DNA of 64,000 nt from a virus (IMGVR_UViG_3300032334_001019:54465-118464), one strand, 5' to 3'; shown: positions 18,797-35,574, counted from the first letter of the stretch. The notes: generated from the sequence alone by a model not told the origin. Translations and numbers: made by a program.

Positions 18797-19072
18797 ATGA
18801 CAACACATGCACTAACACAACTGAGTAACACAACTGCTACTCGTTTAACTCCAAATGGAGTACACTCTGGTATGGATGTAACTTTACAAAATGTAAATGC
18901 AGAAGCATATATCTATATTGGTGGAGAAGATGTAAATTCAGAAAATTATGGATATAGAATTTCTCCTAACAATGCTTGGTCTGTAGAACTACCTGGCCAA
19001 GATGCACTATATGCAATTTCAGATACTAATGGTGCATATATTGCAATCTTACAGATGGGGCTTGAAAACTAA
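18797..19072 (+). CDS. small beta-rich virion protein
   Basis: TLQN..IYIGG..V...YG.....LYAI pattern. Confidence 0.55.
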   Translation: MTTHALTQLSNTTATRLTPNGVHSGMDVTLQNVNAEAYIYIGGEDVNSENYGYRISPNNAWSVELPGQDALYAISDTNGAYIAILQMGLEN

Positions 19073-20592: not shown

Positions 20593-20647
20593 AATTAACT
20601 GGTCTGGCGGAAACTGGTAATTTAAAATACAATGAGATAATGTCGTT

Positions 20648-21376: not shown

Positions 21377-21383
21377 TAAAAGC

Positions 21384-21770
21384 ATGGCATTTCCAGGAGA
21401 ATTAAATATCAATTATTATAAGGGTGATACTTATGAGTTTAATGTATTCCCAAGAAAAACAGACGGAACCAGTTTTGACCTTACTGGATTTATAAATGCA
21501 ACATTTAAGATTGCTACAACTCGTGGCTCAGCAGGTGTAACAGCAGGACAAATTACTGGTTCTGCAAAAATATCAGATGATAAAAAACATATTGCTTGTG
21601 CTATTACACCAGCAAATGGTGATTTAATGAATGCTGGCACAACATATGTTTATGATATACAGGCATATTTGCCAACACCAGGTTCTTATAATAAAGTAAT
21701 TACTTTTATAACTGGATCTATTTCAGTTACAGATGATGTAACGCAAGGGTATGGAGATGCATCGGCGTGA
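21384..21770 (+). CDS. BppU-N-like (KGDT) virion protein
   Basis: Leaderless start MAFPGE; YYKGDTY...YVYDIQ...GSISVTDDVT. Confidence 0.55.
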   Translation: MAFPGELNINYYKGDTYEFNVFPRKTDGTSFDLTGFINATFKIATTRGSAGVTAGQITGSAKISDDKKHIACAITPANGDLMNAGTTYVYDIQAYLPTPGSYNKVITFITGSISVTDDVTQGYGDASA

Positions 21771-22363
21771 CAGATGTATTTGTATCCAGTGATTCATTAA
21801 CAGTTATTGGCGGAACAGCGTCAGTAGATGTCAATGTAGATTACGGTCCACAAGGAGACAGAGGAAGTTCTTTTTTTGTTGGTTATGGAAATCCAAATTC
21901 AATTACACACACATCTTCATTACAAGTTTTAGACATATACATAAATGTTCAATCAACAGATGATGATTATTTGGTTATGTATCAATATCAACTTTCAGAT
22001 GGAATTTTATCTTGGATTTCTATTGGTAAACTACTTACAGATCAATTTAGTTCAAATCGTCAGTTAAGATTTGTAAATGGAGTTACAGAAAATTCAGTAG
22101 ATTTTAATGTTGCAAATATTGTTCCAATGTCCATTTTGTCTAGTCTTACAAAAAATAACTTTAATGTTCAGTGTACATTTGTATCTGATAACCCAGTAGC
22201 AGCATCTACAGTAGTTGGTGATATTTATATAGATTCTTTAACTGGTAATACATATCTTCCAGTAGATATAAATGCTGCTGAATACTCAGAAGGGAATTGG
22301 GTTCCGCTGCACACTGGATCATCTCCATTGTCTAACGTACATTTTTTTGTTACGGTGGTATAA
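21767..22363 (+). CDS. putative virion structural protein
   Basis: GPQGDRGS...GNP..DIYIN module. Confidence 0.55.
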   Translation: MTDVFVSSDSLTVIGGTASVDVNVDYGPQGDRGSSFFVGYGNPNSITHTSSLQVLDIYINVQSTDDDYLVMYQYQLSDGILSWISIGKLLTDQFSSNRQLRFVNGVTENSVDFNVANIVPMSILSSLTKNNFNVQCTFVSDNPVAASTVVGDIYIDSLTGNTYLPVDINAAEYSEGNWVPLHTGSSPLSNVHFFVTVV

Positions 22364-22381
22364 TCCTAATGGTGATATATT

Positions 22382-22834
22382 ATGGCTTCTGAATACATTG
22401 ATGATACTGAAACTGGCACTGGGATATACCCAACAAAAATACCAGGGTACGAAGATGCTGCAGATATTCAAGAAGCATTAAAAATATATCACTATGGAAC
22501 AACAACGATTCCACAAACAACAGGGGCAGTAGATTCAAAATCTGTTGCAGGACATTTATTATCATTAAGACAAGATCTTAATACAGAGATTGCAAGAGGA
22601 ATTGGGTCTCAGATATCTAACTCAGCACCAGTATCTCCTGAAGATGGTTTTATTTGGGTAGATGCAGATACAGATGTTCCAGGTGTTGCAACATATTCAA
22701 CTGCTGTGTATACAAATATTGCACCAACTACTGGATTAACAAATGGGATAATCTGGGTAGAAAAAGGTTCTAGTCCATTAAAAATGTATGTATATAACAG
22801 CGATACATCTGCATGGGATGAGATTGGTGCATAA
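22382..22834 (+). CDS. putative fibre adaptor protein
   Basis: Two AP....G.IWVD/E repeats. Confidence 0.55.
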   Translation: MASEYIDDTETGTGIYPTKIPGYEDAADIQEALKIYHYGTTTIPQTTGAVDSKSVAGHLLSLRQDLNTEIARGIGSQISNSAPVSPEDGFIWVDADTDVPGVATYSTAVYTNIAPTTGLTNGIIWVEKGSSPLKMYVYNSDTSAWDEIGA

Positions 22835-24957
22835 TGACAACATTTAGCAGCACTCCAAAACCAGCATATATTTATGATGAGGCATCTGATACTTGGTATC
22901 TTGTTAGTGGAATAGTAAATACTGCATATCCATATACATGGACAGCGCCCAACACATTTGATGCTGTATTAACAGCAAAGGCTGGTGTTAATAATTTTGC
23001 AACATTAGCAGATAGAGATACTGCACTTGGACTAACACCAAGTAGTGGAGTTGTTTGTTTTGTTAGAGCAGATAATAGTTTAAACTCAATTAATCAATTA
23101 CAGTATTTTGATGGCTCAAAATGGAAAACAATTCATGATGCAACATTTGTTGATAAGTCATCAAACTATGTTATACAAAAGCATGATGTTAATAAAACAA
23201 TTAAAGTTGGATCACCATCTGATTCGTCAAGCGGTACAATAACTATAACTATTCCAAATAACTCAACTCAATCATTTGAAATTGGAAATAAAATTAATGT
23301 TGTTAGATATACTCCAAAACAAGTTTCTATTGTTCAAGGTTCTGGTGTAACAGTTTTTAGTAAATATAGTTCATTAGATATTGTTCCACAATTTGGAATG
23401 GTTGTACTTACAAAAATTGATACTAATTCTTGGTTGGTTACTGGAGATTTAGTTGGATCTATTCCATCAACACCAACTCCAACTCCAACTGCTACTCCTA
23501 CCCCTACACCTACTCCTACAACTCCACCACCAATTACAGATCCACCAATTACTCCAACACCTACCCCAACACCACCAATTACAGATCCACCAGTAACCCC
23601 AACACCTACTCCAACAGTAACCCCAACGCCTACTCCAACAGTAACTCCAACGCCTACGCCGACACCTACTCCTACACCTACGCCAGATAATAAATATTAT
23701 TATACATATTGCTATGGTGGTCAGACTTATAATGGAAATTCAAGCGTTCTTAATTGTGCAGAAATTGAAGCCAACCTTGGAGAAGGATCAACCAGTTTTG
23801 CTTGTCAACAAGGATCTGCACCAACACCTGCAGTTTGTAGCGTAACACCAACGCCTACTCCAACAGCAACACCAATTCCAACTTGGTATTTCTGCTGTAG
23901 TAATGGCGCAGGTGGATCTGTATCTGCAGCAAATGCTGGAATAGCAGCAGGATTAGCAAGTACATGGTGTGCTAATGAAGAACCTGGAAATACTTTATCT
24001 GGTGGAGTTTATTCAACACCACAAAGTTGTAATTCTATAACTCCTACACCAACACCGACTTCTACACCAACACCTACACCTTTAGATTGTTCTGACGCTG
24101 GATTCTTAAATCAAGCAGATTGTTTAGCATGTGGATATACCTATACAGGTGGAACTTGTTATGATACACCAAACCCTAGTGCAACACCTAATCCAACACC
24201 TACACCAACACCTACTCCTTTAAATTGTTCTGATGCTTCATTCTTAAACCAAGCAGACTGTTTGGCATGTGGTTACACTTACACAGGTGGAACTTGTTAT
24301 GATACACCAAATTTCACTCCTACACCAACACCAACTGCAAGCCCTAGCCCTACCCCTTCTCCAACTCCTTCACCAAGCCCTAGCCCTACTCCAACACCAA
24401 CTCCTACACCTACTCAAAACTGTACACCAATTTATCAAGGTATTGAAAATAGACAGTGCAATGGAAACTCAACACCAGTTGCAATTTATTTAAATCCATG
24501 TACTGGAGTTTATACTTGGAATTGCCCACCAGTAACTCCTACCCCTACACCTACACAACCACCAGTAACACCAACACCTACACCTACACAACCACCAGTT
24601 ACCCCTACACCTACACCAACACAGCCACCAGCAACACCAACACCAACACCAAGTTGTAGTCCAAATCAAGGTAATTCTTGTTTAGGTCCTGATGGATGTG
24701 CTGGAACAATTGGATGTAATGGAATTTGTTCATGTAATCCATCTCCATTTAGCGTCTTTAGTTTCTCACCATTTAGCGTATTTGGTTTCTCACCATTTAG
24801 CGCAGCCTTCTCAGTCTTTGGTTTCTCACCATTTGGCGCAGCCTTCTCAGTCTTTGGTTTCTCACCATTTAGTGCTGCATTTGGCGTATTTGGTTTCTCA
24901 CCATTTAGCGCAACATTCTCAGTCTTTGGATTTGCACCATTTACTGCACCAGACTAA
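22834..24957 (+). CDS. mucin-like Pro/Thr-rich, Cys-rich surface protein with C-terminal FSPF repeat tail
   Basis: Phage-type N-terminal domains ending WLVTGDL, (PT)n linkers, a duplicated Cys module and a Phe-rich tail. Confidence 0.7.
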   Translation: MTTFSSTPKPAYIYDEASDTWYLVSGIVNTAYPYTWTAPNTFDAVLTAKAGVNNFATLADRDTALGLTPSSGVVCFVRADNSLNSINQLQYFDGSKWKTIHDATFVDKSSNYVIQKHDVNKTIKVGSPSDSSSGTITITIPNNSTQSFEIGNKINVVRYTPKQVSIVQGSGVTVFSKYSSLDIVPQFGMVVLTKIDTNSWLVTGDLVGSIPSTPTPTPTATPTPTPTPTTPPPITDPPITPTPTPTPPITDPPVTPTPTPTVTPTPTPTVTPTPTPTPTPTPTPDNKYYYTYCYGGQTYNGNSSVLNCAEIEANLGEGSTSFACQQGSAPTPAVCSVTPTPTPTATPIPTWYFCCSNGAGGSVSAANAGIAAGLASTWCANEEPGNTLSGGVYSTPQSCNSITPTPTPTSTPTPTPLDCSDAGFLNQADCLACGYTYTGGTCYDTPNPSATPNPTPTPTPTPLNCSDASFLNQADCLACGYTYTGGTCYDTPNFTPTPTPTASPSPTPSPTPSPSPSPTPTPTPTPTQNCTPIYQGIENRQCNGNSTPVAIYLNPCTGVYTWNCPPVTPTPTPTQPPVTPTPTPTQPPVTPTPTPTQPPATPTPTPSCSPNQGNSCLGPDGCAGTIGCNGICSCNPSPFSVFSFSPFSVFGFSPFSAAFSVFGFSPFGAAFSVFGFSPFSAAFGVFGFSPFSATFSVFGFAPFTAPD
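24739..24951 (+). repeat. FSPF repeat tail (8- and 12-aa units)
   Basis: Units FSVFGFSP and FSAAFSVFGFSP; about one residue in three is Phe. Confidence 0.85.
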
Positions 24958-24978
24958 TCATTATGATATACTTTTAAG

Positions 24979-26187
24979 ATGTCAGAAATTGATAAAAAAG
25001 AAGAAGATCTTAGACAAGTTAGACCATGGGATTTTTTTAATCCAAATACTGAATATGCAACAAAAGAAGTTCAGTCTGCAAGATTTGATATTTGTAAATC
25101 TTGTCCAGAATTAATTAAACTAACATCGCAATGTAAAAAATGTGGTTGTGTCATGAGATTAAAAACTAAGTTAGCACTTGCAACATGTCCTATAGGTAAA
25201 TGGGGTACTGCAGAAAAATTAACTCCAGAATTAATACAAGAAGACTCAGTATCTAGAATATTTATTAATATACCTTCATATAAAGATCCAGAAATTTGGC
25301 TAACAGTAGAAAACTTTATTAAAAATGCTAAATATCCAGAAAGAGTTTTTTTTGGCATTACATTACAATCTAATAATATTTATCAAGATAGAATTCAGTC
25401 ATTTGAATATAATAATGTTAGTCTAGATGCTATTGAACCTGGATCAATTGTAGGCTGTCAGCCAGCCAGAAAAAATTCTCATAAATTTTATAGAAATGAA
25501 GAATATTATTTAAATATGGATTCACACATGAGGTCTATAAAAAACTGGGATGTAGAAATAATTAGAGAATACGAATTTAATAAAGAACATTATGGTGTAT
25601 CAATATTTACTGCCTATGCCCCACCTTATGATTTATTGCCAGATGGAACAGATGATATTAATCCAGATATAAGTTCAAACCCTACATTTTTTATGTCTGA
25701 ATCAAACATATCTAATTTTTATAAAAATTTAGTTCCACAGTTTACATCTCAATATACCAATCCTGGACACAATGTATTATCTCCATATATTTCTGGACAT
25801 TTTTTCTTTACAGAAAAACAAGTAATTGAAAGGGTTCCATTTATGTCTGAGATAACATTTACAGAAGAGGAACCCTTAATGGCTTTAAGATTTTTTACTG
25901 CTGGATTTAATCTTGTAACACCTAGTAAGGTTTTTGTATATCATAGATATGGAAGAGGTGGAAGAAGCCTATTTTGGGAAGATTTTCCAGAAAAGTTTTT
26001 CCCAGAAGATGAAAAATCTAGAAACTATTTTAGAGAATTAGTTACAACAAATAAAATAGACCCAGTAAGTGGTCTTTTTACAGAAAGATCACTAGAAGAT
26101 TATGAGAAGTATTCTGGTATAAGTTTTTCAACAGCAACCCTTCATGAGGGAGTAAAGTCTGGACTTCCTTCTGGTTCTTTCAAATAA
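24979..26187 (+). CDS. DUF6171-like domain fused to a GT60-like (Skp1-hydroxyproline type) GlcNAc transferase
   Basis: IFINIPSYKDPE, NAKYPERVFFGI, EEYYLNMDSHMR..KNWD, SGHFFF, EEPLMALRFFTAG. Confidence 0.7.
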   Translation: MSEIDKKEEDLRQVRPWDFFNPNTEYATKEVQSARFDICKSCPELIKLTSQCKKCGCVMRLKTKLALATCPIGKWGTAEKLTPELIQEDSVSRIFINIPSYKDPEIWLTVENFIKNAKYPERVFFGITLQSNNIYQDRIQSFEYNNVSLDAIEPGSIVGCQPARKNSHKFYRNEEYYLNMDSHMRSIKNWDVEIIREYEFNKEHYGVSIFTAYAPPYDLLPDGTDDINPDISSNPTFFMSESNISNFYKNLVPQFTSQYTNPGHNVLSPYISGHFFFTEKQVIERVPFMSEITFTEEEPLMALRFFTAGFNLVTPSKVFVYHRYGRGGRSLFWEDFPEKFFPEDEKSRNYFRELVTTNKIDPVSGLFTERSLEDYEKYSGISFSTATLHEGVKSGLPSGSFK

Positions 26188-26220
26188 AAAAGGGCCAGGT
26201 ATATAACCTGACCCAATTTT
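26188..26220. terminator. probable bidirectional terminator
   Basis: GGGCCAGGT/ACCTGACCC hairpin flanked by A and T runs, between convergent genes. Confidence 0.6.
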
Positions 26221-26229
26221 ATATAATTT

Positions 26230-26781
26230 TTATGATGGGAATTGTGTCATTAAATTTTTTGTTTTTGGCGTAATACCGTGCCAAGATGACCAATCTTTTC
26301 CACCGTTACTCATATGATATGCAATTTGAGCATTTAAAACTGGATTGAATAATTCAGCATTAGAAGAGAGTTCAAACTTATCTCTTCTATCTGGACCAAG
26401 AATTCCTAGCATGTTAATTTGAAAAAGTCCAAAAGATGAGTCTCCAGTGCTTGCATTTCCGTTAAATGCTAGAGGTCTTCCTCCAGATTCTTTTTTAGCA
26501 ACAGCCCAGGCCTCAATAAGGTCCTTTCCTTTAAATCCAACTAAAGATAATAAACTTTTTAACTCTAGATCAGTTAGAGAAACCTTATTTGAAAAACTCT
26601 CCAACATTTTCTCTTTAGAAACCAAAAAAACCTCTTTCGAGGTAGTTTGCGATGTCTGAGCCTGTTCGGGACTCAAATTATTAATAGTATTAGCGTTAGC
26701 AGCATTAGAAAAAACACTGATAAGTGCTACGGTACTGAGTATGCTAATGATCTCTTTGTTTCTTTCGATAAATTTAATCAT
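26230..26781 (-). CDS. secreted lysozyme-like / lytic transglycosylase
   Basis: Start corrected to MIKF (AAGGAGG RBS, TTGACT-N17-TATACT promoter); signal peptide ending ANA; AKKESGG catalytic Glu, SFGLFQIN, DWSSW. Confidence 0.75.
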   Translation of the reverse strand: MIKFIERNKEIISILSTVALISVFSNAANANTINNLSPEQAQTSQTTSKEVFLVSKEKMLESFSNKVSLTDLELKSLLSLVGFKGKDLIEAWAVAKKESGGRPLAFNGNASTGDSSFGLFQINMLGILGPDRRDKFELSSNAELFNPVLNAQIAYHMSNGGKDWSSWHGITPKTKNLMTQFPS

Positions 26782-26912
26782 AGTTTCCTCCTTAGAAAAC
26801 AATAACACCCTGGTAGGTGTCTACTGATAAGTATAACATGTTTTTGTCTCAAAAGTCAAATATTGTAACATTTTTTATAAAATAATTTATTCAAACATGG
26901 TATAATAATTAA

Positions 26913-27323
26913 ATGGCTACGCTCAGAGGGTCTCAATCATCATATGATATTGGAAACAAACCACCAACAGTTATTTGGACAGTTGTTCGTGGTGATACAT
27001 CTGGTTTTAAAGTTTATGTTACAGATGATGCTCAAGTTCCTTTAATTTTAAAGGGTGATGAGTCTGAATGGGATATTGCCATGAAGATTAAAAGACCAAA
27101 CTCAACACCTGGAGTTATTACTGATGATGCAGTTACAATTATGGCATTGCATCCAAGAGCAGATGAAGATGATCTAGTTGGTGAATTTACGGTTTGGCTT
27201 ACAGCAGAAGAATCTAATGTCTTACAGACAGGAGACATCTTTGATATTCAGGTTAGCGACCCAACAAGAGTCTGGACAGTTTGCCAGGGTAGCATGAAGA
27301 TTCTTGAAGATGTAACAGATTAA
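26913..27323 (+). CDS. BppU-N-like (RGDT) virion protein
   Basis: WTVVRGDT...IFDIQV...GSMKILEDVT. Confidence 0.55.
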   Translation: MATLRGSQSSYDIGNKPPTVIWTVVRGDTSGFKVYVTDDAQVPLILKGDESEWDIAMKIKRPNSTPGVITDDAVTIMALHPRADEDDLVGEFTVWLTAEESNVLQTGDIFDIQVSDPTRVWTVCQGSMKILEDVTD

Positions 27324-27547
27324 TGGCAACAGCAATACTACTAGATAACTTAAACGGTAAAACTAAAAAAATATTCCCAATTGATTATTCATTAATTGAA
27401 ATTAAAGGTTCAAATCAAAAAGTTATTATAAATGATGTTTTACCTTTTAGAGTTAGGTTTACAGCAATACAAATTGAAGGAATTGGTTTGGGTAATACCC
27501 CAGCAATTCCATTGCAGGTTATTGGATATAGCAACTATATTCTTTAA
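27323..27547 (+). CDS. hypothetical virion-associated protein
   Basis: Coupled to the upstream gene. Confidence 0.5.
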   Translation: MATAILLDNLNGKTKKIFPIDYSLIEIKGSNQKVIINDVLPFRVRFTAIQIEGIGLGNTPAIPLQVIGYSNYIL

Positions 27548-27582
27548 TAATATTATTTAAAAAGAGGGGTTATAATTACCAC

Positions 27583-28029
27583 ATGGCTAAAATATCAGTT
27601 CCAGGAGTAAAAAGTCTATTTCAAACAGGTGATAGACCAACTCAAGAAAATTATGTAGATTTAATTGATACCCTTGTTGCTCAATCAACAGATTTGGGAT
27701 CAGCAGGTAATAATGAAAATACAATCAATGGTATTGAGAATGTAACTGTAGTTGATAATTTTGACGCCACAGTTTGGCGTATGGTTAAGTACATTGTTTC
27801 AATATCAAAGACCTCTGCAGGGGACAACAAGTTCTATGCAACCGAACTAACAATTCTCGTTGACGGTACAGATGTATCAGTTAGCGAATATGGCACAATC
27901 GACAACGATGGGAATATTGGCACCATTAGCGTCTCTCGCACTGGAAATACCGTGGCTTTAACAGTCACTCCAGATCCTGCGATCAAGCCAGTCACTGTAC
28001 GATTTGCTCGTATGGGACTTAAGGCATAA
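27583..28029 (+). CDS. putative fibre-associated protein
   Basis: KSLFQTGDRPTQENYVDLID N-terminus; C-terminal domain (SEYG) resembles that of 28046..29854. Confidence 0.6.
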   Translation: MAKISVPGVKSLFQTGDRPTQENYVDLIDTLVAQSTDLGSAGNNENTINGIENVTVVDNFDATVWRMVKYIVSISKTSAGDNKFYATELTILVDGTDVSVSEYGTIDNDGNIGTISVSRTGNTVALTVTPDPAIKPVTVRFARMGLKA

Positions 28030-28045
28030 TAAAAGGAGATAAAAA

Positions 28046-29854
28046 ATGGCAACAGTAAATAAAGACTTTAAGATTAAGAGTGGCCTTATTGTTGAGGGTA
28101 CAACAGGTACAATCAACGGTTACGATATTCTTACAAAGAAAACAGCAGACCAAAACTATATTATTGGTCTTATTGGTGGATCAGCATCATCAGATGCTAC
28201 ACCAGATACAGTAGTACTTCGTGATGGAGATGCAAACTTTGCTGCAAACGAAATTACAGCAAATCTTTTTGTTGGAGATCTTGATGGCCAGGCTGCAACA
28301 GTTGATAGCCTTTCAGGTCATACAACAACAGAAATCTCAGAAGGTTCAAACCTTTACTTCACAAACCAAAGAGCACTTGATGCAACTAATGCTGCATATG
28401 ATCCAGCAGGTTCTGCAGCAGATGCTCAGGATGCAGCAGAAACTTATGCAGAGGGTTTAATCTCTACAGAAGTTACAAACCGCAACTCAGCAATCTCAAC
28501 TGCAAAGGGTGAAGCAATTTCTTCTGCTAATTCATACACAGATGGAGAAATCACAGACGCACTTACAACTGCACAAGGCTATGCTACAACAGCACAGGGC
28601 AATGCAGAAGATTATGCAGAGGGACTTATTTCAACAGAAGTAACAAACAGAAATTCAGCAATCACAACAGCAATTGATTCAGAAGTTACAGCACGTAACT
28701 CAGCAATTGCTACTGCTAAGGGTGAGGCAATTTATTCTGCTAACTCATACACAGACAGTGAAATTGCTTCTCTTGTAGGTACAGCACCAGATATTCTTGA
28801 TACTCTTGGAGAATTGGCAACAGCACTTCAGGAAAACCCAGATATTATCTCTGATCTTCAGGATATTGCAGCAGGAAAGCAAGATTCATTTACAGCAGGT
28901 GACGGACTTACATTTAATGGTACAAGCCTTGATGTAGAACTAGATCCAACAAGTGGTCTTTCACTTGCAACAGGAATGCTTGCAGTTGATACAAACATAA
29001 TTGCTACAACAGTTTATGCTGACGGAGTTGCTTCAGATGCACTTGATAGTGCAGAAGATTACACAAACTCTGCAATCTCAACAGAGGTTTCAAACCGTAA
29101 CTCTGCTATCTCTGATGCAATCTCAACTGAAGTTACAAATCGTAACTCAGCAATCTCAGATGCAATCTCAACAGAGGTTTCAAACCGCAATGGTGCAATC
29201 TCAGATGCGATTTCAACAGAAGTTTCAGATCGTAACTCTGCAATCACATCAGCAGTAAATGCACTTACAACATCTGATATCGAAGAGGGAACAAACCTTT
29301 ACTTCACAGATGGTCGTGCTAAGACTTCAGCAGCAGATCTTTTGACTGGTGCAACTCTTACAAATATCACAATCACAGGTTCAGGTTCAGGACTTACTAT
29401 CACCGCAGAAAACGGTGTAGCAGATTCTACAACTGATGATCTTGATGAGGGTACAACAAACAAATACTTTACAGCACAAAGAGCAGTAGATGCCCTTGAA
29501 GCAGTTGTTCCAAACTTTACAGCAGTTGAGTTAAACTCAGTTGCTAAGCAGGTTGCAGCAACAACATCAGTTCCAGTAGCAGGAATCTCAACAGGATATG
29601 CATGGGCTAAGGCTGACTACCGTTCAGCAGAGTTCCTTGTAAAGGTTGCTTATGGAACACATACAGAAATCTCAAAGGTACTTGTTACACTTGACACTTC
29701 TGATAATATCGCAATCACTGAGTATGGCATTGTTGGAACAAATGGTTCAGCATCATCAGTTTCAGCAGGAATCTCAGGAAACGATGTACAACTTCAGGTA
29801 ACAACAGTTAATAACAACTCAACAGTTACTGTAGTTGGAACATTGCTTGCTTAA
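28046..29854 (+). CDS. coiled-coil tail fibre-like protein
   Basis: EG.NLYFT repeats, APDILDTLGELA motif, AISTEVSNRNSAISD repeats. Confidence 0.7.
   Translation: MATVNKDFKIKSGLIVEGTTGTINGYDILTKKTADQNYIIGLIGGSASSDATPDTVVLRDGDANFAANEITANLFVGDLDGQAATVDSLSGHTTTEISEGSNLYFTNQRALDATNAAYDPAGSAADAQDAAETYAEGLISTEVTNRNSAISTAKGEAISSANSYTDGEITDALTTAQGYATTAQGNAEDYAEGLISTEVTNRNSAITTAIDSEVTARNSAIATAKGEAIYSANSYTDSEIASLVGTAPDILDTLGELATALQENPDIISDLQDIAAGKQDSFTAGDGLTFNGTSLDVELDPTSGLSLATGMLAVDTNIIATTVYADGVASDALDSAEDYTNSAISTEVSNRNSAISDAISTEVTNRNSAISDAISTEVSNRNGAISDAISTEVSDRNSAITSAVNALTTSDIEEGTNLYFTDGRAKTSAADLLTGATLTNITITGSGSGLTITAENGVADSTTDDLDEGTTNKYFTAQRAVDALEAVVPNFTAVELNSVAKQVAATTSVPVAGISTGYAWAKADYRSAEFLVKVAYGTHTEISKVLVTLDTSDNIAITEYGIVGTNGSASSVSAGISGNDVQLQVTTVNNNSTVTVVGTLLA
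29071..29250 (+). repeat. 45-bp (15-aa) tandem repeat, about four copies
   Basis: AISTEV(S/T)NRNSAISD units. Confidence 0.75.
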
Positions 29855-29889
29855 TAAAAAATAAAAATAGTTGGAAGAAGGAGTAGTAA

Positions 29890-30339
29890 ATGGCAACAGT
29901 CGATAAAGACTTCAAGGTAAAGAATGGATTAGTCGTTGCAAACGGCGGTACATTTGGAGATGCAGTAACAGTAGGAGCACCAACTCTTGCTGATCATGCA
30001 GCAACTAAGGAGTATGTTGATTCAAGATCTATGGCTGTAGGTAATACTGCTCCTTCTTCACCAACTAATGGAACACAATGGTTAGATACTCTAACAAATA
30101 GAGTTAACTTTTACTATAATGGTGATTGGTATACACAGGCAACTATTGATGATACCTTGACATTACCACAGCACATTCACGATACAGCAATTGATGGAAC
30201 TGGTTTCATAGTATCTCAGTTCTATGAAGGTGGATCATTTAATAGTCCACAAGGAACAGGTTTAGATGCTGGTGGACCAGGTACAACAACTTGGACATCA
30301 GTATTTGATGGCGGTACAGCAGTAGATAACTTCAATTAA
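29890..30339 (+). CDS. short fibre-type protein
   Basis: N-terminus MATVDKDFKVKNGL shared with 28046..29854; HAATKEYVD motif. Confidence 0.6.
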   Translation: MATVDKDFKVKNGLVVANGGTFGDAVTVGAPTLADHAATKEYVDSRSMAVGNTAPSSPTNGTQWLDTLTNRVNFYYNGDWYTQATIDDTLTLPQHIHDTAIDGTGFIVSQFYEGGSFNSPQGTGLDAGGPGTTTWTSVFDGGTAVDNFN

Positions 30340-30396
30340 AAACTGATGTTATAATAAGATAAGTTAATGGGCAGCCCCCATAAAAGGAGAATATAA

Positions 30397-33024
30397 ATGG
30401 CAACAAGAATGCAACAGCGCAGAGGAACTGCACAGCAATGGTTAGATGCAGACCCAGTTTTAGCAGCAGGAGAAATTGGATTTGAGACAGACACTAATGA
30501 GTTCCGTATTGGCGATGGTGTTAACGTTTGGTCAGACCTATCTCCTTTCAAGAATTTAGAAGACCTTGGTGGATCACTTGACGATTATGTCACAGTTGCA
30601 TCAAAGGGTCAAGTTAATGGTGTAGCACCACTTGGTTCAAATGGTCAGATCCCAATCGCATTTTTAGCAGATCTAATTGATGAAGCACCTGAAGCACTAA
30701 ATACACTTGGAGAAATTGCAGATCTTTTGACTACAGTTCAGTCAAGTGTTTCATCTTCAGTTGCAGCACACTCTGGAGACACAACAAATGTTCACGGAAT
30801 TGCAGATACAGCAAATCTTGCGTATCAAGCAGACATAACTACACACAATACTGACACAACAAATGTACACGGTATTGCAAATACAGCAGATCTTGCAACA
30901 AAGACATATGCAGATTCAGCAGTATCAACACATAATTCAGATACAACATCTGTTCATGGCATTTCAAACACTGCAGATCTAGCATTACAGGATGATGTAA
31001 CTGGTGCAGTATCAGCACACAATGATGAAACAGAAAATGTTCATGGAATTGCTGACACATCACTTCTAATAACAACAACTGCAATGGCAAGTGCAATTAC
31101 AACACACAATGATGATACTACATCTGTTCATGGTATTGCAGACACTACAGCACTTGCTACAAAGACTTATGCAGATGGCAAGGCTTCTGACGCTCAAACA
31201 GCAGCAATCTCAGCAGCAGCAACAGCAGCAGATGGCAAGGTTTCAGACCATAATGCTGATACTACATCTGTTCACGGTATTGCAGACACTACGGCACTTG
31301 CTACAAAAACATATGCTGACGGAGCAGTTTCAACTGCAGTATCAGCACTAACAAAATCTTCAGTAGGTCTAGGAAATGTAGATAACACTTCAGATGCATC
31401 TAAGCCAGTTTCAACCGCTACTCAAACAGCACTTGATCTAAAGGCACCACTTGCAAACCCAACATTTACAGGAACTGTTTCAGGTATTACAAAGTCAATG
31501 GTTGGTCTTGCAAATGTAACTAATACAGCAGATGCTGACAAGCCAGTTTCATCTGCTACCCAGACAGCACTTGACCTTAAGGCTAACCTTGCAGGTCCAA
31601 CATTTACAGGAACAGTAACACTTCCTGCAAATACAATTACAAATTCAATGATGGCTGATGATTCTGTAGATACTGCAGAAATCAAAAATTCAGCAGTTAC
31701 AAACGCTAAACTAGCAGGTTCGATTGGATGGGACAAGTTGTCAGTTTCTTCAACAGTTTCATCAACAGAACTTGGATATGTTGATGGCGTAACATCAGCA
31801 ATTCAGACACAGTTGGATTCTAAACTACCACTTGCTGGTGGAACAATGACTGGAGCACTTACACTTTCAGGTGCACCAACATCAGATCTTCATGCAGCAA
31901 CAAAGTTGTATGTTGATAACGTAACTGCTGGAATTAACTTCCATGAATCAGTTCACGCAGCATCAACTACAAACCTTGCAACAATTTATGCAAACGGAAC
32001 ATCTGGAGTAGGGGCAACTCTTACAGCAAATACAAACCGTGCATTTGCAACTCTTGATGGAGAATCTGTTACTCTTGGACAGAGAGTTCTTATTAAGGAT
32101 CAAACAGACGCAAAGCAAAACGGTATTTATACATTAACAACAGTAGGTTCAGTATCTGCTCCATGGGTATTAACTCGTGCAACAGATGCAGATAATAACC
32201 CAACTGGAGAACTAAAGGCTGGAGACTTCTGTTTAGTAATTAATGGAACTGTAAATGCTGGTTATGGATATATTAATAACTCAACAGCAAATCCAATCGT
32301 AATTGGAACTGATAACATTACTTACACAGCATTTAGTGCTGGCAAGACAGTAACTGCAGGCTCTGGTCTTACAGAGTCTACACCAGGAACACTTGATATT
32401 GCAACTGGTGGAGTTACATCAGCAATGATCGCTGATGGAACAATCGTAGATGCAGATATCAATGCTTCAGCAGCAATTGCTAAGACAAAGATTTCTGGAA
32501 CAGCGATCACTGCAGCAGATTCAGGTACAGTTACATCAGCAATGATTGCAGATGGAACAATTGTAGATGGAGACATTAATGCTTCAGCAGCAATTGCACA
32601 GTCTAAGATCTCAGGCCTAACATCAGCACTTTCTGCTAAGGCACCAGTTGATGCACCAACATTTACTAACCTAGTAACAGTTGCAGCATCTGGTGTAGCA
32701 TTTACAGATGGTACACAGACAAAGGCTGGCGTTCCTTCTATCACATCATTTGCAACAGCAATTTCTTCTAGTGCAACTCTTGCTTCTGGTCAACAGGACA
32801 AGTTCGTTCCACTAACTGGAGGAGTTCAGATCACATTGCCTGCAACTGGTTATTCAACTGGTCAATCAATTGATTTCTACCAAGAATCAGGTACAGGAGC
32901 ATCATTTGCTTCAACTAACGGCGTTGTTGGAACACCAGGTTTAAAGTTTAGAACTACAAACTCAGTTGTAACAGCAATGAAGACTTCTGCAGGATGGTTG
33001 GTCTTTGGAGACCTATCACTATAA
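30397..33024 (+). CDS. tail fibre with Mtd_N-like N-terminal domain
   Basis: RRGTAQQW...LAAGEIGFETDT..FRIGDG; six H..D/E...VHGI repeats; C-terminus WLVFGDL. Confidence 0.75.
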   Translation: MATRMQQRRGTAQQWLDADPVLAAGEIGFETDTNEFRIGDGVNVWSDLSPFKNLEDLGGSLDDYVTVASKGQVNGVAPLGSNGQIPIAFLADLIDEAPEALNTLGEIADLLTTVQSSVSSSVAAHSGDTTNVHGIADTANLAYQADITTHNTDTTNVHGIANTADLATKTYADSAVSTHNSDTTSVHGISNTADLALQDDVTGAVSAHNDETENVHGIADTSLLITTTAMASAITTHNDDTTSVHGIADTTALATKTYADGKASDAQTAAISAAATAADGKVSDHNADTTSVHGIADTTALATKTYADGAVSTAVSALTKSSVGLGNVDNTSDASKPVSTATQTALDLKAPLANPTFTGTVSGITKSMVGLANVTNTADADKPVSSATQTALDLKANLAGPTFTGTVTLPANTITNSMMADDSVDTAEIKNSAVTNAKLAGSIGWDKLSVSSTVSSTELGYVDGVTSAIQTQLDSKLPLAGGTMTGALTLSGAPTSDLHAATKLYVDNVTAGINFHESVHAASTTNLATIYANGTSGVGATLTANTNRAFATLDGESVTLGQRVLIKDQTDAKQNGIYTLTTVGSVSAPWVLTRATDADNNPTGELKAGDFCLVINGTVNAGYGYINNSTANPIVIGTDNITYTAFSAGKTVTAGSGLTESTPGTLDIATGGVTSAMIADGTIVDADINASAAIAKTKISGTAITAADSGTVTSAMIADGTIVDGDINASAAIAQSKISGLTSALSAKAPVDAPTFTNLVTVAASGVAFTDGTQTKAGVPSITSFATAISSSATLASGQQDKFVPLTGGVQITLPATGYSTGQSIDFYQESGTGASFASTNGVVGTPGLKFRTTNSVVTAMKTSAGWLVFGDLSL

Positions 33025-33047
33025 TACGAAATTAAAGGAGATTAATA

Positions 33048-34196
33048 ATGTCAAAACAAGCAGGTAGAATGAGCCAAGGTGCAAATGATTTCTTGGCTCC
33101 ATACGCACCAACAATAGGAACAGCAACAGATGTCGGAACAGCACGTCCATATAATAATGGAGCAGCAACCGTAACATTTACTGCAACAGGTCCAAATACA
33201 GCGGACTCATTCACAGTTTATGCTGTTGAAGATCCTACAAAGACTGCTACTGGCGCATCATCTCCTTTAACAGTAACAGGTCTAGCATCTGCAACAAATT
33301 ATACATTTAAGGTATATGGTACAAATACTGCAGGTGGTCGTGGTTCTGATTCTTCAGCATCTAACCAAATTACAGCAACAACAGTTCCTGCTGCACCAAC
33401 AATTGGCACAGCAACAGATGTTGGAACGGGCCGTGCATATAATAATGGTGCAGCAACTGTTACAGCAACTGCAGGAGCAACTGGTGGAAAAGCAATCACT
33501 GGATATACTGCACTTTCTAGCGCAGCACAAACAGGAACTGCTGCAACTAGCCCAGTAACTGTTGGAGGTTTAGCATCATCAACTGGTTACACTTTTACAG
33601 TTAAGGCAACAAATGCTAATGGTGATTCAGCGTATTCTTCAGCATCAAACTCTATAACAGCAACTACAGTTCCAGAAACTGTTGGCACACCTGGTGTAAC
33701 AACCGCTGCAGTTGGTGGTTCAGCAGCACAGGGTGCAGCAAATACTGCAAATGATACAGTTTCATGGTCAGCACCAGCAAATGGTGGAAAAGCAATTGAT
33801 CTGTATTATTGGACATGTTCAGACGGCAAATCAGGAAGCACTGCATCTACATCTATAGTTGTAGGACAAGAATCAAATACAGCACAGACATATAGTGTTT
33901 ATGCACACAACCCTAATGGAAATGGTGGCACTGGAACATCTGCATCAATTACATCAGCGTTCTCATTTACACCATTCTCAGTGTTCTCATTTTCACCATT
34001 TGGTGTGTTCTCGTTTTCACCGTTTGGTGTTTTCTCGTTCTCACCATTCGGATTCTCTCCATTTGGATTCTCGCCATTTGGATTCTCACCATTTGGTGTA
34101 TTCGGATTCTCACCATTCTCAGCAGCGTTTGGTGTATTTGGATTCTCACCATTTGGTGCATCGTTTGGCTTTGCACCATTCTCAGCATGGACATAA
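33048..34196 (+). CDS. fibronectin type III repeat protein with C-terminal FSPF repeat tail
   Basis: Two to three FN3-like units (TVTGL..ATNYTFKV..TN..G...S..SN) followed by a Phe-rich tail. Confidence 0.75.
   Translation: MSKQAGRMSQGANDFLAPYAPTIGTATDVGTARPYNNGAATVTFTATGPNTADSFTVYAVEDPTKTATGASSPLTVTGLASATNYTFKVYGTNTAGGRGSDSSASNQITATTVPAAPTIGTATDVGTGRAYNNGAATVTATAGATGGKAITGYTALSSAAQTGTAATSPVTVGGLASSTGYTFTVKATNANGDSAYSSASNSITATTVPETVGTPGVTTAAVGGSAAQGAANTANDTVSWSAPANGGKAIDLYYWTCSDGKSGSTASTSIVVGQESNTAQTYSVYAHNPNGNGGTGTSASITSAFSFTPFSVFSFSPFGVFSFSPFGVFSFSPFGFSPFGFSPFGFSPFGVFGFSPFSAAFGVFGFSPFGASFGFAPFSAWT
33960..34190 (+). repeat. FSPF repeat tail (5-, 8- and 12-aa units)
   Basis: Units FSPFG, FSPFGVFS and FSPFSAAFGVFG. 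Confidence 0.85.
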
Positions 34197-34212
34197 AAAT
34201 AAAATAAAGATT

Positions 34213-34244
34213 GGCCCTCCTGAAATACGGAGGGCTATTTCTTT
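34213..34244 (+). terminator. intrinsic terminator
   Basis: GCCCTCC/GGAGGGC stem followed by a T-rich run. Confidence 0.6.
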
Positions 34245-34279
34245 ATGGTATACTTTTATTATAGTAGATAGGACTTAAA

Positions 34280-34939
34280 ATGCAATATAGCATGAATATA
34301 CCACCAAGTGTGAGCAAGTCAACACAGCCACACAGATTCTTTGAAAGATTTTTAAATAATGATCTTCAAGAATTAACAGTAGAACTTCAAGATAGATATC
34401 AAAAAATCCAGGAAGCAAAAGTTGCTGGTGTTACACCAGTAGGAGAAAATGAATTTTGGAAGCAGTCTAATAGTGTTTCTACTATGAAGTGGAGACAGTA
34501 TAATGTTTTTCAGTTTCACTCATCTGGACTCTATAATCTTTATTCATCAATCTCTGATATGGTTAAAGAAGCATGTCAGTATTATGGTTTAGATTTTAAT
34601 GAACAGCAATATATGGTTCAGGGTTGGTTCAATATTAACTATACAAAATCTGGTAAGTTAGATTGGCATGACCATGGCCCAGAAGGTGCACCAAACTTTC
34701 ACGGATACTATTGTGTAAGTGCAGAACCTTCTACAACACATTATCGTGTTTTTGATAAGAATGTTGAAAATAATAACTTAAACAACCGTGCAATTTTGTC
34801 TGAAATGGGCCATCCACATGCTCAAGCAGACTGGGACTGGGAAGGTCCAAGAATTACAGTTGCATATGATGTAATTCCATTGAAAGATTTAAAGAAATTT
34901 GCAATGGATCAAGAACAGCATTGGATACCACTAATATGA
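34280..34939 (+). CDS. putative 2OG-Fe(II) oxygenase
   Basis: GWFNIN...WHDH...FHGYYCV...HPH...RITVAYD. Confidence 0.65.
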   Translation: MQYSMNIPPSVSKSTQPHRFFERFLNNDLQELTVELQDRYQKIQEAKVAGVTPVGENEFWKQSNSVSTMKWRQYNVFQFHSSGLYNLYSSISDMVKEACQYYGLDFNEQQYMVQGWFNINYTKSGKLDWHDHGPEGAPNFHGYYCVSAEPSTTHYRVFDKNVENNNLNNRAILSEMGHPHAQADWDWEGPRITVAYDVIPLKDLKKFAMDQEQHWIPLI

Positions 34940-35574
34940 GCGAAAAGAAAGCACACAGATTTTATTTTAGACATTTAGAAAATGATTTAGAAGAACTTAG
35001 TCAGTATTTAACACAAAAACAAGAAGAACTTTTAAACGGAACATGGCTAAATATAGATAAAGAGATTTTATCTGAATACAATAAGTATAATGGACCAACC
35101 ACACAACTTGGTTCACTATACAACATCTTTAATCTTGATGTACCAAGCATAGTTAATCTAAAGTCTGCAATTAGAGATGCAGTAAAAGATGCTTGTGATT
35201 ACTACGAGTTAGATTTTGAGGCATTGGATTATATGATTCATGGATGGTTTAATCTTGACTATAAGACTGAGGGTGACAATGGTGTTAACCCAGTAAAGAA
35301 TGAAGTCTTCATGCATGACCATATGGGTGGAGAAGGTGCACCAGTTTTCCATGGCTACTACTGTGTAAATGCAGAACCATCAATAACATACTATAAGATT
35401 GACGGCAAGCATCTGCATGAAAACCATAATCAAAATAATAAACTAATTGTTTCAGAAACTGGTCATCCACATGGAAGAGATGATTGGTATGAAGATAAGC
35501 CAAGAATCACTATTGCATATGATATCTCTCCTTTAGAAAGAGATGGCAAAGGCGAAAAGTGGATAAAGTTATAA
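34936..35574 (+). CDS. putative 2OG-Fe(II) oxygenase (paralog of the preceding gene)
   Basis: Start corrected to MSEKKAH; GWFNLD...MHDH...FHGYYCV...HPH...RITIAYD. Confidence 0.65.
   Translation: MSEKKAHRFYFRHLENDLEELSQYLTQKQEELLNGTWLNIDKEILSEYNKYNGPTTQLGSLYNIFNLDVPSIVNLKSAIRDAVKDACDYYELDFEALDYMIHGWFNLDYKTEGDNGVNPVKNEVFMHDHMGGEGAPVFHGYYCVNAEPSITYYKIDGKHLHENHNQNNKLIVSETGHPHGRDDWYEDKPRITIAYDISPLERDGKGEKWIKL

Follow-up and report, generated by a model that had tools for sequence, protein, structure and literature searches.

A Phe-rich C-terminal repeat on two fibre proteins of a 118-kb siphovirus and its relation to Hint-like domains in related phages

The window analysed here, a 64,000-nucleotide stretch of viral DNA, is part of a complete, terminally repeated siphovirus genome of 118 kb (118,464 bp) that encodes a tape measure protein of 2780 aa. 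Of chief concern are two of its proteins, here called P1 (22834..24957, 707 aa) and P2 (33048..34196, 382 aa). Both reading frames are open over these coordinates, and the next genes begin 21 nt past the P1 stop, at 24979, and 83 nt past the P2 stop, at 34280. The features around them are collected in Table 1. The fibre N-terminal module encoded just ahead of P1 is a separate gene in the window and is fused ahead of the P1-type protein in relatives, the mucin-like fusion proteins of L082, L085 and G004 beginning with homologous N-termini. The fibre encoded directly upstream of P2 is recognised by Pfam Mtd_N (E 6.4e-14) and by 24 PHROG tail/fibre families, and a fibre of this type lies upstream of P2 in 70 of 79 loci. 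P2 itself begins with FN3 domains (Pfam fn3, E 2.3e-13), which AF2, run with a 90-sequence alignment and averaged over 10-residue blocks, models as three beta-sandwich domains, with block means of 89-98 over residues 21-300 except for a linker block (221-230) at 70.

Table 1. Features around the two fibre proteins, in coordinates of the window.
Feature	Position	Strand	Basis
Fibre N-terminal module protein, 150 aa	22382..22834	+	N-termini homologous to fused mucin-like proteins
P1 residues 1-206, fibre-end ('WLVTGDL') domain	22834..23451	+	PHROG matches; stand-alone ORF in relatives
P1 mucin-like spacer, Pro/Thr-rich linkers alternating with Cys-containing modules	23452..24732	+	Translation, TRF arrays
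P1 Phe-rich tail, 74 aa + stop; shared 19-mer at 24850..24906	24733..24957	+	
Glycosyltransferase, Cys-rich DUF6171-like N-terminal part + PF11397	24979..26187	+	Pfam, PHROG
Tail fibre, 875 aa, Mtd_N N-terminus and 'WLVFGDL' C-terminal domain, directly upstream of P2	30397..33024	+	Pfam, PHROG
P2 residues 1-300, three FN3 domains	33048..33947	+	Pfam fn3, AF2
P2 Phe-rich tail, 82 aa + stop; shared 19-mer at 34098..34154	33948..34196	+	
Predicted DSBH/cupin-fold 2OG-oxygenase-like protein, paralogue 1	34280..34939	+	AF2, Foldseek, ESM Atlas
Paralogue 2 of the 2OG-oxygenase-like family, 42% identical to paralogue 1	34921..35574	+	Alignment
Two more 2OG-Fe(II) oxygenase genes behind the RNR gene (context only)	37823..38428, 38421..38930	+	PF13640

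Both proteins end, as the initial annotation had pointed out, in an uncharged tail rich in F, S and P (74 aa in P1, 82 aa in P2) that is closed in each case by FGFAPF. The P1 tail (nt 24733..24954) contains 23 F, 15 S, 9 P, 9 A, 7 G and 6 V, its sole charged residue being the last D, while the P2 tail (nt 33948..34193) contains 28 F, 17 S, 11 G and 10 P and no charged residue at all. The 19-mer to which that annotation drew attention is exactly the longest common substring of P1 and P2; at the DNA level 46 of its 57 nt are identical and 10 of its 19 codons are the same, and among the differences is a Ser written AGT in one tail and TCA in the other. Along their full length the tails align at 68 codons, 54 of which encode the same residue (pS 0.76, pN 0.17), though two arrays of one short unit will align well by construction; the same codon is used at 27 aligned positions, against 27.6 expected when synonymous codons are drawn randomly from tail usage. 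With so many residues shared and the synonymous sites randomised, the likeness is one of peptide, as had been proposed, rather than of recent DNA copying. Both tails are tandem arrays in the DNA as well, with units of 24 and 36 bp in P1 and of 24, 15 and 36 bp in P2 (matches of 75-94%) and consensus units GFSPF and xVFGFSPF; a search of the 118,464-bp genome finds tail matches at these two sites only, and both proteins stop 4 aa past the repeat. The AF2 block means for P2 fall to 68 at residues 301-310 and to 41-52 over 311-382, with no secondary structure, low pLDDT being weak evidence of disorder in a repeat that aligns so poorly.

A Phe-rich tail is carried by 72 of the 79 related loci and by 141 of 141 database hits, in which it has a median length of 73 aa (range 32-144), an F fraction of 0.31-0.41 and a median charged fraction of 0. 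The repeat unit, which in relatives is GFTPF, GAF or FFxPP, and the length of the array differ widely. In a second genome with two tails, G008, repeats of the FSPFSAAG type close both a mucin-like and an FN3 protein. The repeat also doubles as an inter-module linker, FSVFGFSPTPPEA units joining Cys-rich modules in protein P0072, and FN3 homologues of other phages have globular C-terminal domains at the position of P2's tail. This Phe-rich, essentially uncharged low-complexity repeat is a lineage-specific, family-wide module of the fibres.

The description of the repeat as a C-terminal tag is right for the window and wrong for most of the relatives, in which a Hint/intein-like domain of 157-206 aa comes after it (about three quarters of homologues); the initial annotation was blind to this domain because the window's genome has none. 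The extension is found in 56 of the 72 tail-bearing P2 loci, another 15 ending 19 aa or less from the repeat and one being cut by the contig end, and among the 141 database proteins 107 continue for 100 aa or more past the repeat and 33 end within 20 aa. A profile built from 31 extensions matches the Pho RadA intein (4e2u, E 2.6e-7), more mini-inteins and the bacterial intein-like 2lwy (E 7.9e-4), and Pfam Intein_splicing matches 8 of the 31 members (best E 8.7e-8), single sequences falling mostly below the Pfam cut-off. On profile similarity, the extension is a Hint (Hedgehog/intein, BIL-like) domain. In its alignment the junction is occupied by Cys1 or Ser1, a T/SxxH block follows, and the domain closes with HN (Cys-type members) or HD (Ser-type). 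Ser-type members and the L030 group retain the T/SxxH block, and in the Cys-type L038, L039, L045, L056, L060, L062 and L081 the block-B His has given way to Q or E; with this loss, some of the Hint domains may be inactive or co-opted as plain terminal domains. Members of the L047 type continue for about 40 aa past the Hint at their C-terminus. The terminal Hint domains end in HNK, HNLKYY or HD..., and with the C-extein nucleophile absent splicing would be impossible, so that only N-terminal cleavage or transfer is left.

No Hint was found in the window's 118-kb genome by profile search at E<=1, and the same search returned 1, 2, 1, 2 and 0 matches in genomes G001-G005, with E 1e-48 to 1e-57 in four of these five relatives. 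Where P2 has no Hint, the rest of the record yields none either (7 of 7 records); this is true of 5/5 records with such a P2 and of the complete genome G005. Genomes with two Hint-bearing fibre proteins (G002, G004, L047) use one Hint subtype and one junction sequence for both. On the P2 N-terminal tree, the presence of the domain switches at least 9 times. Since the window's genome is without Hint, P1 and P2 match the product that would be expected from Hint self-cleavage in the relatives.

It had also been suggested that related WLVxGDL domains precede the two tails, within P1 in one case and at the end of the upstream fibre in the other. Inside the window this relation is weak (BLASTP E=0.043, 9/17 identical), and it is borne out through the relatives and PHROG: P1 residues 86-207 match the C-terminal parts of the fibre ORFs that immediately precede P2 in 3/5 genomes (E 7.9e-10 to 1.5e-8), and the PHROG matches of the domain fall at the C-terminal ends of tail proteins (phrog_8780, E 1.8e-10). 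In G001, G002, G003 and G005 the domain forms an ORF of its own, about 211 aa long, which in G002 lies directly upstream of the mucin-plus-tail protein; in the window, L082, L085 and G004 it is fused to that protein. The mucin-like spacer of P1 matched no Pfam family; it is built of TRF arrays of 6-66 bp plus a 138-bp unit in 2.2 copies at 24040..24336.

The gene after P1 does encode a GlcNAc-type glycosyltransferase of PF11397 (E 2.6e-39, 136.1 bits against a cut-off of 21; matched stretch aa 140-361), a family which we take to be CAZy GT60. The DUF6171-like part of the protein spans aa 24-75, PHROG assigns it to phrog_24687 (glycosyltransferase, aa 93-393) and phrog_13558, PF11397 homologues occur in L100 (E 2.2e-33), and a search by sequence found no solved relative. 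The proposed link between this enzyme and the tag is not supported: the gene tracks the Pro/Thr-rich mucin-like protein, whether the Phe tail is present or absent. It lies downstream of mucin-like genes in L082-L086 and G002, and so also after homologues that end in a PT repeat plus Hint (G002), in a TIN repeat plus Hint (L085) or in Cys-rich ends with an internal FFPP stretch only (L083, L084, L086). This gene neighbourhood argues for the mucin-like PT-rich part, rather than the Phe-rich tail, as the acceptor. Prolyl hydroxylation of some part of the mucin-like proteins is plausible, because a PF13640 oxygenase adjoins the mucin-like gene in G008 and L085.

The two ORFs after P2 are paralogues with a predicted 2OG-oxygenase-like fold, in agreement with the initial annotation. 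For the first of them AF2 gives a pLDDT of 91, and its model has 114 Foldseek matches in the PDB at E<=1e-3, the top ones being 3bvc, 2rg4, ThoJ, PHD2 and P4H (E about 1e-5, TM 0.44-0.64). The ESM Atlas neighbours of the paralogues are 79% PF13759; no match was found in Pfam, PHROG or NCBIfam. An alignment of the family has invariant H130, H132, H141, H180 and R191, with D131 and H178 conserved at 90% or more, giving a motif HDH...HPH...R that is presumably as compatible with a cupin-type His cluster as with a 2OG triad. Searching the phage's own genome with this family returns exactly the two ORFs. PF13640 matches 38421..38930 with E 5.4e-11 and 37823..38428 with E 1.2e-3, below the cut-off; the relatives have 4-6 PF13640 oxygenase genes per genome, and the window's phage has 3, plus the 2 PF13759-like ones.

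We lean, if only slightly, toward an account in which the tail is the working fibre tip, the Hint of the relatives a self-removing cap, and the neighbouring enzymes not specific to the tag. Judging from its motifs, the Hint of the relatives would form a (thio)ester at Cys1 or Ser1 and cut itself off, leaving the Phe-rich repeat as the mature C-terminus; the window's phage would have dropped the Hint in both genes and would encode the 'already cleaved' form directly. Self-removal in the relatives, together with the Hint-less genes of the window, would make the tail the working part, most likely a disordered, sticky and hydrophobic distal tip on two fibres. One of these would consist of the fibre-end domain, mucin-like spacer and tail of P1, and the other would have P2, an FN3 stalk with its tail, following the fibre protein encoded directly upstream. 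Such a tip might serve for low-specificity adhesion to the host envelope or for homotypic Phe-Phe association. In function the Hint would resemble the C-terminal chaperone domains that cleave themselves off other phage fibres, the PF11397 enzyme would most likely O-glycosylate the Pro/Thr-rich mucin-like part of P1, and the PF13759-like paralogues would be syntenic neighbours bordering a nucleotide-metabolism module.

The initial annotation had envisaged a two-copy module of anchor, spacer, tag and enzymes, of which the tag, its carriers and the fibre-end domain, in a fibre cluster, are retained here and the tag-specific enzymes are not. That the adjacent enzymes modify the Phe/Ser/Pro repeat and the modified tail is the functional product, the paralogues for instance hydroxylating Pro of SPF/TPF units and the PF11397 transferase glycosylating, seems to us unlikely, though several observations point that way. 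Prolyl hydroxylases are among the structural neighbours of the predicted oxygenases; Pro-containing repeats (Pro fraction 0.09 or more) are found in all 54 loci with paralogues, and Pro-poor GAF-type tails in 14 of 16 loci that extend as far as the RNR gene and have no paralogues; and the PF13640 and PF11397 genes beside the L085 mucin-like gene resemble the PhyA/Gnt1 pair of the Skp1 pathway, as described in PMC6939170. Four phylogenetically independent contrasts between paralogue presence and Pro content are available, in which the two change together 2-3 times and never oppositely, which with so few contrasts gives p 0.25 in a sign test, and L008 and L035 have Pro-rich tails with no paralogues. 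Moreover, tail, Hint subtype and downstream slot lie side by side and could be exchanged together in a single recombination block, so that linkage may explain the co-variation. Evidence against a dedicated role of the paralogues in modifying the tag comes from the 16 loci that are without them and still bear a Phe-rich tail, from the location of the paralogues on the edge of a module with RNR and other nucleotide-metabolism genes, and from the 4-6 further oxygenase genes per genome; there is no glycosyltransferase near P2 and no paralogue near P1, and the glycosyltransferase also follows homologues with no Phe tail (G002, L085). The suggestion of a RiPP-like core finds no support, the carriers being multi-domain structural fibre proteins rather than short leader-plus-core precursors and the repeat unit varying freely among relatives; Pfam scans of 20 window ORFs matched no RiPP enzyme, only GT, SLT, fn3, Mtd_N, collagen and 2OG families.

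More doubtful still is a reading of the repeat as an interchangeable low-complexity spacer with no function of its own, in which the Hint, or something the Hint did, was the functional end and the window's copy is a leftover after Hint deletion. Such a spacer might be expected from the other repeats that precede the Hint (PT in G002, VTP in G004, TIN in L085), from the use of the Phe-rich units as linkers in P0072 and from the wide variation in unit and length, but it would hardly keep 54 of 68 residues identical between two tails with saturated synonymous sites, or persist in all 15 loci and the 33 database proteins that have no Hint; a content of 31-41% Phe with almost no charge is also far from ordinary linker composition, and matching tails occur on both proteins of one genome in the window as well as in G008. 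We regard as improbable, and as the least probable of these readings, that a non-water nucleophile resolves the (thio)ester in the relatives, as cholesterol does in Hedgehog, so that the Phe-rich C-terminus is ligated to a virion protein, lipid or wall component, Hint-less phages binding non-covalently. No adduct-recognition region was identified, and since the Hint has changed at least 9 times on the tree with the tail kept, a covalent step cannot be essential; on the other side, a terminal Hint with no C-extein nucleophile leaves N-terminal cleavage or transfer, L047-type members have their extra 40 or so residues behind the Hint, and one module is common to two proteins per genome.

Among known systems, BIL and Hog-Hint domains come closest to the C-terminal domains of the relatives, which match intein profiles and solved inteins and a BIL and have a Cys1 or Ser1 and, in part of the members, the T/SxxH block and an HN end with no downstream nucleophile. 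PMC7765530 describes BILs in hypervariable, non-conserved proteins, and the Hint domains of the relatives likewise occur in proteins of this kind. They differ in their place, at the very end of phage fibre proteins and preceded by a Phe-rich repeat, and in that many end in HD or have no block-B His, while the proteins of the window have no such domain at all. A literature search found no paper on a terminal Hint domain of a phage fibre; phage papers among its results concern true inteins in terminase and RNR genes. Phage tailspikes and fibres may also carry self-cleaving C-terminal intramolecular chaperone domains of the Peptidase_S74 type, which leave a functional fibre end; a fibre domain that removes itself follows the same logic as proposed here for the Hint, but fold and chemistry are unlike those of Hint, for which a chaperone role would be conjecture, and Pfam scans of P1, P2 and their homologues gave no Peptidase_S74 match.

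In composition the tail recalls the FG nucleoporins, with their uncharged, Phe-Gly-rich, probably disordered repeats, and its Phe residues could likewise give cohesive multivalent contacts. Nup98 has GLFG repeats followed by an autoproteolytic domain, and in the relatives, too, the Phe repeat precedes a putatively self-cleaving domain. The Phe density of FG domains is much lower than 31-41%, however, and here the setting is a viral fibre and the autoproteolytic fold is unrelated; we know of no homology between nucleoporin FG domains and the phage tail. With hydrophilic spacers absent and a median charge fraction of 0, the tails were not classed as FG-nucleoporin-type repeats, the resemblance being one of chemistry only.

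GT60 enzymes transfer GlcNAc to Hyp of Skp1 (PMC6939170) and act on Ser/Thr-rich mucin domains in the mucin-type O-GlcNAc of protists (PMC8724618). The PF11397 gene is consistently found downstream of fibre genes of the Pro/Thr-rich mucin-like kind, in one case separated from them by a PF13640 oxygenase, the difference being that nothing links the window's enzyme with the Phe-rich tail in preference to the PT-rich part. In phages, mycobacteriophage glycosyltransferases are linked to capsid glycosylation (PMC11256854). The capsid protein of the window's phage is about 45% identical to those of large Streptomyces phages; one database homologue is labelled as an Oxalobacteraceae MAG, which conflicts with this actinophage-like capsid.

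The Phe-rich C-terminal tag shared by the mucin-like fibre-type protein (P1) and the FN3 protein (P2) belongs to a conserved, previously undescribed module of the fibre proteins of a large uncultured phage group. What it normally accompanies is a terminal Hedgehog/intein-like (Hint) domain, not the neighbouring enzymes to which the initial annotation had tied it, and the window carries the Hint-less state in both proteins. The tag itself is as first described: the last 74 residues of P1 and the last 82 of P2 are almost wholly F, S, P, G, V and A, with 23 and 28 Phe, respectively; both close with FGFAPF, and the shared 19-mer is present exactly as reported, with 46 of its 57 nucleotides and 10 of its 19 codons identical between the two genes. 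The view that this likeness resides in the peptide holds when the codon comparison is extended to the whole tails: 54 of 68 aligned codons specify the same residue and only 27 are the same codon, vs. 27.6 expected with synonymous codons drawn at random (pS 0.76, pN 0.17), with the caveat that arrays of one unit align well by construction. Since synonymous codons behave as if random while residues are kept, the likeness is old and held at the peptide level. The tail DNA consists of imperfect tandem arrays with units of 15, 24 and 36 bp (matches 75-94%), found in these two places only in the genome; neither the tail nor the mucin-like part has a family in Pfam, PHROG or NCBIfam, and our literature search found no description of a Phe-rich fibre repeat. 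An artefact or wrong-frame reading was rejected, as the frames are long and 141 database proteins conserve them; the alternative-frame ORFs overlapping the tails are by-products of the repeats. Logan contigs of the probable source run end within the P2 repeat, and a 1250-nt contig of another study covers P2 and its stop.

Scanning viral contigs with P2 gave at least 273 relatives, from which 79 loci were kept for analysis. A Phe-rich repeat lies behind the FN3 domains in 72 of these 79, the other seven being FN3 proteins of other phages with globular C-terminal domains in the tail's place. Although the unit drifts among relatives (GFSPF, xVFGFSPF, GFTPF, GAF, FFxPP), the composition is constant: tails of the 141 database proteins run from 32 to 144 aa (median 73), Phe makes up 31-41% of them and the median fraction of charged residues is zero. 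We dropped collagen as a reading of the GAF-type repeats, the Pfam Collagen match being weak (E 0.073); nor would it apply to the window, where the repeat units are 5 and 8 residues. The close relative G008 mirrors the window, with a mucin-like protein ending in FSVFSFSPFSAAG units and a P2 ending ...FSPFSAAGDW, and a Hint domain on neither. Long proteins of P1 type with this tail were sought between 388 and 1238 aa, but all 54 matches were P2-type; the sole other mucin-plus-FSPF-tail protein seen is the truncated one in G008. In one locus (L036) P2 passes from the GFSPF repeat into an out-of-frame-looking end of 19 aa (SIWILSIWVL...), which probably reflects either slippage in the repeat, with a shift of frame, or an error of assembly.

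The tag had been taken for the terminus of its proteins, which does not hold for most relatives: 157-206 further residues follow it in 56 of the 72 tail-bearing loci (of 79 kept) and in 107 of the 141 database proteins. In an alignment of 31 such extensions the junction residue is Cys or Ser, a T/SxxH block is present and the end has the form ...HNK, ...HNLKYY or ...HD...; searched against solved structures, the profile of this alignment finds the Pho RadA intein (E 2.6e-7) along with further mini-inteins, as well as a bacterial intein-like domain (E 7.9e-4), and Pfam Intein_splicing matches 8 of the 31 members (best E 8.7e-8). Motifs, intein profile matches and Pfam matches together identify the extension as a Hint-superfamily domain. 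As it is terminal, without a downstream nucleophile, splicing is impossible; what would be expected instead is that an N-terminal (thio)ester forms and is cleaved, the chemistry reported for BIL domains (PMC7765530). The block-B His is lost in several Cys-type members, so not all of these domains need be active. In our literature search no phage fibre protein was described with a terminal Hint domain; phage papers among the results dealt with true inteins in terminase and RNR genes. Beyond its HD end, one subtype continues with some 40 conserved, helical-looking residues (...SLE.LYQ.WK.SQ...), in the position of the sterol-recognition region of Hedgehog proteins.

A profile search (E<=1) found no Hint domain in the window's own 118,464-bp genome, nor did the same profile find one in five records with P2 ending at the repeat; five relative genomes (G001-G005) have 1, 2, 1, 2 and 0 copies. 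Where there are two, the second copy (G002, G004, L047, L055, L061, L071) belongs to a fibre protein of mucin-like or PASTA type; it shares its subtype with the P2 copy and has a nearly identical junction sequence. At least nine changes in Hint presence are seen on a tree of P2 N-terminal regions (71 rows, a quick method, many weak branches).

The presumed location of the tail comes from gene and domain order. The N-terminal ~206 aa of P1 form a domain with matches to tail-protein C-terminal ends in PHROGs and to the C-termini of fibre ORFs directly upstream of P2 in relatives (E 1e-8 to 1e-10). The related WLVxGDL domain proposed to precede each tail is thus borne out by way of the relatives, while within the window the likeness to the fibre upstream of P2 is weak (9 of 17 residues, E 0.043). 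This fibre-end domain is a separate gene of ~211 aa in G001, G002, G003 and G005, directly followed in G002 by the mucin-like Hint protein, and is fused to the mucin-like protein in the window, L082, L085 and G004. P2 shows the like order in 70 of the 79 loci kept (of at least 273): the FN3-plus-tail protein comes after a fibre that has this domain at its end. The recurrence of this order leads us to see the spacer-plus-tail proteins as extensions of fibre ends, which would make the Phe-rich segment distal. AlphaFold2 (90-sequence alignment) predicts three confident FN3 domains in P2 and a tail without secondary structure, with block means of 41-52 over residues 311-382. Between PT linkers, P1 and its homologues (L091/L095, L082, L085) carry repeated four-Cys modules of the type C-x9-11-C-x2-C-G-x8-9-C, for which Pfam has no family. 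L085 and the database protein P0072 also carry WSxWS-containing Cys modules, which we take to resemble thrombospondin type-1 repeats.

The gene after P1 encodes a glycosyltransferase of family PF11397, which we equate with GT60, with a Cys-rich DUF6171-like N-terminal part; no solved relative was found by sequence. Its five close relatives among viral contigs and a more distant one of G002 are each found a short way downstream of a mucin-like, Pro/Thr-rich fibre gene, whatever that gene's C-terminus: an FFPP tail in L082, an internal FFPP stretch in L083, L084 and L086, TIN repeats plus Hint in L085, and PT repeats plus Hint in G002. This argues against the enzyme as the tag's partner, and the simplest reading of the gene neighbourhoods is that it would target the PT-rich spacer rather than the tag. 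A PF13640 oxygenase lies between the mucin-like gene and the transferase in L085, and in G008 the mucin-like gene with the tail is succeeded by two ORFs, one DUF6171-like and one PF13640-like. GT60 enzymes add GlcNAc onto Hyp of Skp1 after PhyA, and onto Ser/Thr-rich mucin domains (PMC6939170, PMC8724618). The occurrence of such a transferase, at times with a prolyl-hydroxylase-like oxygenase, beside Pro/Thr-rich fibre proteins suggests phage-encoded mucin-type glycosylation of virion fibres, and this pairing may prove easier to pursue than the link between tag and enzymes that was proposed at first. The DUF6171-like (phrog_13558) segment of the transferase also matches separately in relatives, and in G001, G004, G005 and G008 it stands in the same neighbourhood with no GT-domain match in the locus.

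The two paralogous ORFs after P2 have no curated family in Pfam, PHROG or NCBIfam, and their profile gives only a chance-level match to PDB sequences (E 0.31). The predicted structure is a 2OG-oxygenase-like double-stranded beta-helix (pLDDT 91) whose structural neighbours are the uncharacterised 3bvc and 2rg4, ThoJ and prolyl hydroxylases (E ~1e-5); their language-model neighbours are PF13759 clusters of viruses. The paralogues are present in 54 of the 79 loci kept (of at least 273), and 16 loci that reach the RNR gene without them have in the slot a DUF6065-like gene of ~240 aa, whose G002 counterpart matches DUF6065 weakly (E 0.0048). The oxygenase gene load is unusually high, with 4-6 PF13640 genes per genome in five relatives, and in the window's own genome three, one weak further candidate and the two PF13759-like paralogues; an oxygenase beside any given gene is therefore not unexpected.

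Positions of features in the window, its own genome (G000) and relatives
Feature	Position	Remarks
Fibre-like gene cluster	window 19072..34196	upstream of head/tail genes; collagen-like, endosialidase-like, Mtd_N and FN3 matches
242-aa protein	window 20648..21376	
P1	window 22834..24957	
Four-Cys-module unit of P1	window 24040..24336	residues ~400-500; 138 bp, 2.2 copies
Alternative-frame ORFs	window 24692..25114, 33895..34278	
Glycosyltransferase	window 24979..26187	
DUF6171-like segment of glycosyltransferase	window 24979..25200	residues 24-75
602-aa fibre	window 28046..29854	tandem repeat at 29071..29245
Fibre upstream of P2	window 30397..33024	
P2	window 33048..34196	
Oxygenase-like paralogues	window 34280..34939, 34921..35574	
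Tape measure protein, 2780 aa	window 52022..60364	phrog_10030, E 1.5e-92
2OG-Fe(II) oxygenase genes and oxygenase-like paralogues, own genome	G000:C1:31148-31402, 45517-45765, 93134-93379; window 37823..38930, 34280..35574	
Separate DUF6171-like / phrog_13558 matches	L109:547-747; L088, L090, L095	
Conserved ~240-aa slot gene	L021:7720-8442, L019:7547-8296, L014:1951-2664, L008:6336-7082, L035:4838-5572, L025:2914-3627; L097:2743-3510	between P2 and RNR
Hint subtype with ~40-aa extension	L047:1193-1798, L047:6721-7356; L055/L061 equivalents	
P2 with out-of-frame-looking end	L036:2305-3087	

One alternative keeps the neighbouring enzymes as modifiers of the tail, and the best point in its favour, though a weak one, is the covariation of the paralogues with tail Pro: tails contain Pro in 54 of 54 loci with paralogues and are of the Pro-poor GAF type in 14 of the 16 without. 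The supported independent contrasts number only four, with two or three changing together and none in the opposite direction (p 0.25). Moreover, L008 and L035 depart from the pattern, and tail, Hint subtype and downstream slot are neighbours that recombination could transfer together as a block. A RiPP reading of the tag was rejected: the carriers are multidomain fibre proteins of 707 and 382 aa, and none of the 20 window ORFs scanned with Pfam matches a RiPP enzyme. The Phe-rich repeat might instead be a mere linker, as PT, VTP and TIN repeats fill the same pre-Hint position in G002, G004 and L085, respectively, and FSVFGFSPTPPEA units act as linkers between Cys-rich modules in P0072; against this, the tail is kept in all 15 Hint-less loci. 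Covalent anchoring of the tail is a further alternative.

We give slightly better than even chances to a model in which the tail would be the working distal end of the fibre, probably disordered and sticky, the Hint domain of relatives a self-removing, or possibly transferring, cap, and the glycosyltransferase an enzyme decorating the mucin-like spacer; we are more confident of the architecture and less so of the adhesive role. If true, this would be a new use of the Hedgehog/intein fold, in the self-processing of phage fibre ends, and a new type of fibre tip, with a Phe-rich low-complexity repeat in place of a folded receptor-binding domain. It would bear on host adsorption by uncultured freshwater phages, on the annotation of several hundred metagenomic "hypothetical proteins" with the module (429 matches) and on protein engineering, through naturally terminal, splicing-incompetent Hint domains behind sticky peptides. 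A bolder version, which we consider unlikely, would have a family of freshwater actinophage-like siphoviruses with a new fibre-tip module: an ultra-Phe-rich uncharged repeat matured by a terminal Hint domain (a self-removing cap, or transfer of the tail's C-terminus onto another molecule), of the same type on two fibres per virion and sometimes encoded "pre-cleaved" as here, with a viral prolyl-hydroxylase / GT60-like pair building mucin-type glycoprotein spacers in the same fibres. Such a phage fibre would unite a mucin of eukaryotic kind with processing as in Hedgehog proteins and an FG-like chemistry of adhesion.

Positions 54465-118464, the right half of a complete virus record of 118,464 bp that has direct terminal repeats, make up the window, which encodes a portal protein, head protease, major capsid protein, minor tail protein and a tape measure whose 2780 aa imply a very long non-contractile tail. 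The capsid protein shares ~45% identity with its counterparts in Streptomyces phages of 121-134 kb and was the only query with matches in the "phages" collection, where megablast and tblastn searches with the region and with P2 gave none. The host might be actinobacterial; one P2 homologue in the database carries the label of an Oxalobacteraceae MAG. Among the other genes of the fibre cluster, the 602-aa fibre contains a 45-bp (15-aa) tandem repeat in 3.9 copies, and the 242-aa protein a collagen triple-helix repeat (Pfam E 1.5e-7).
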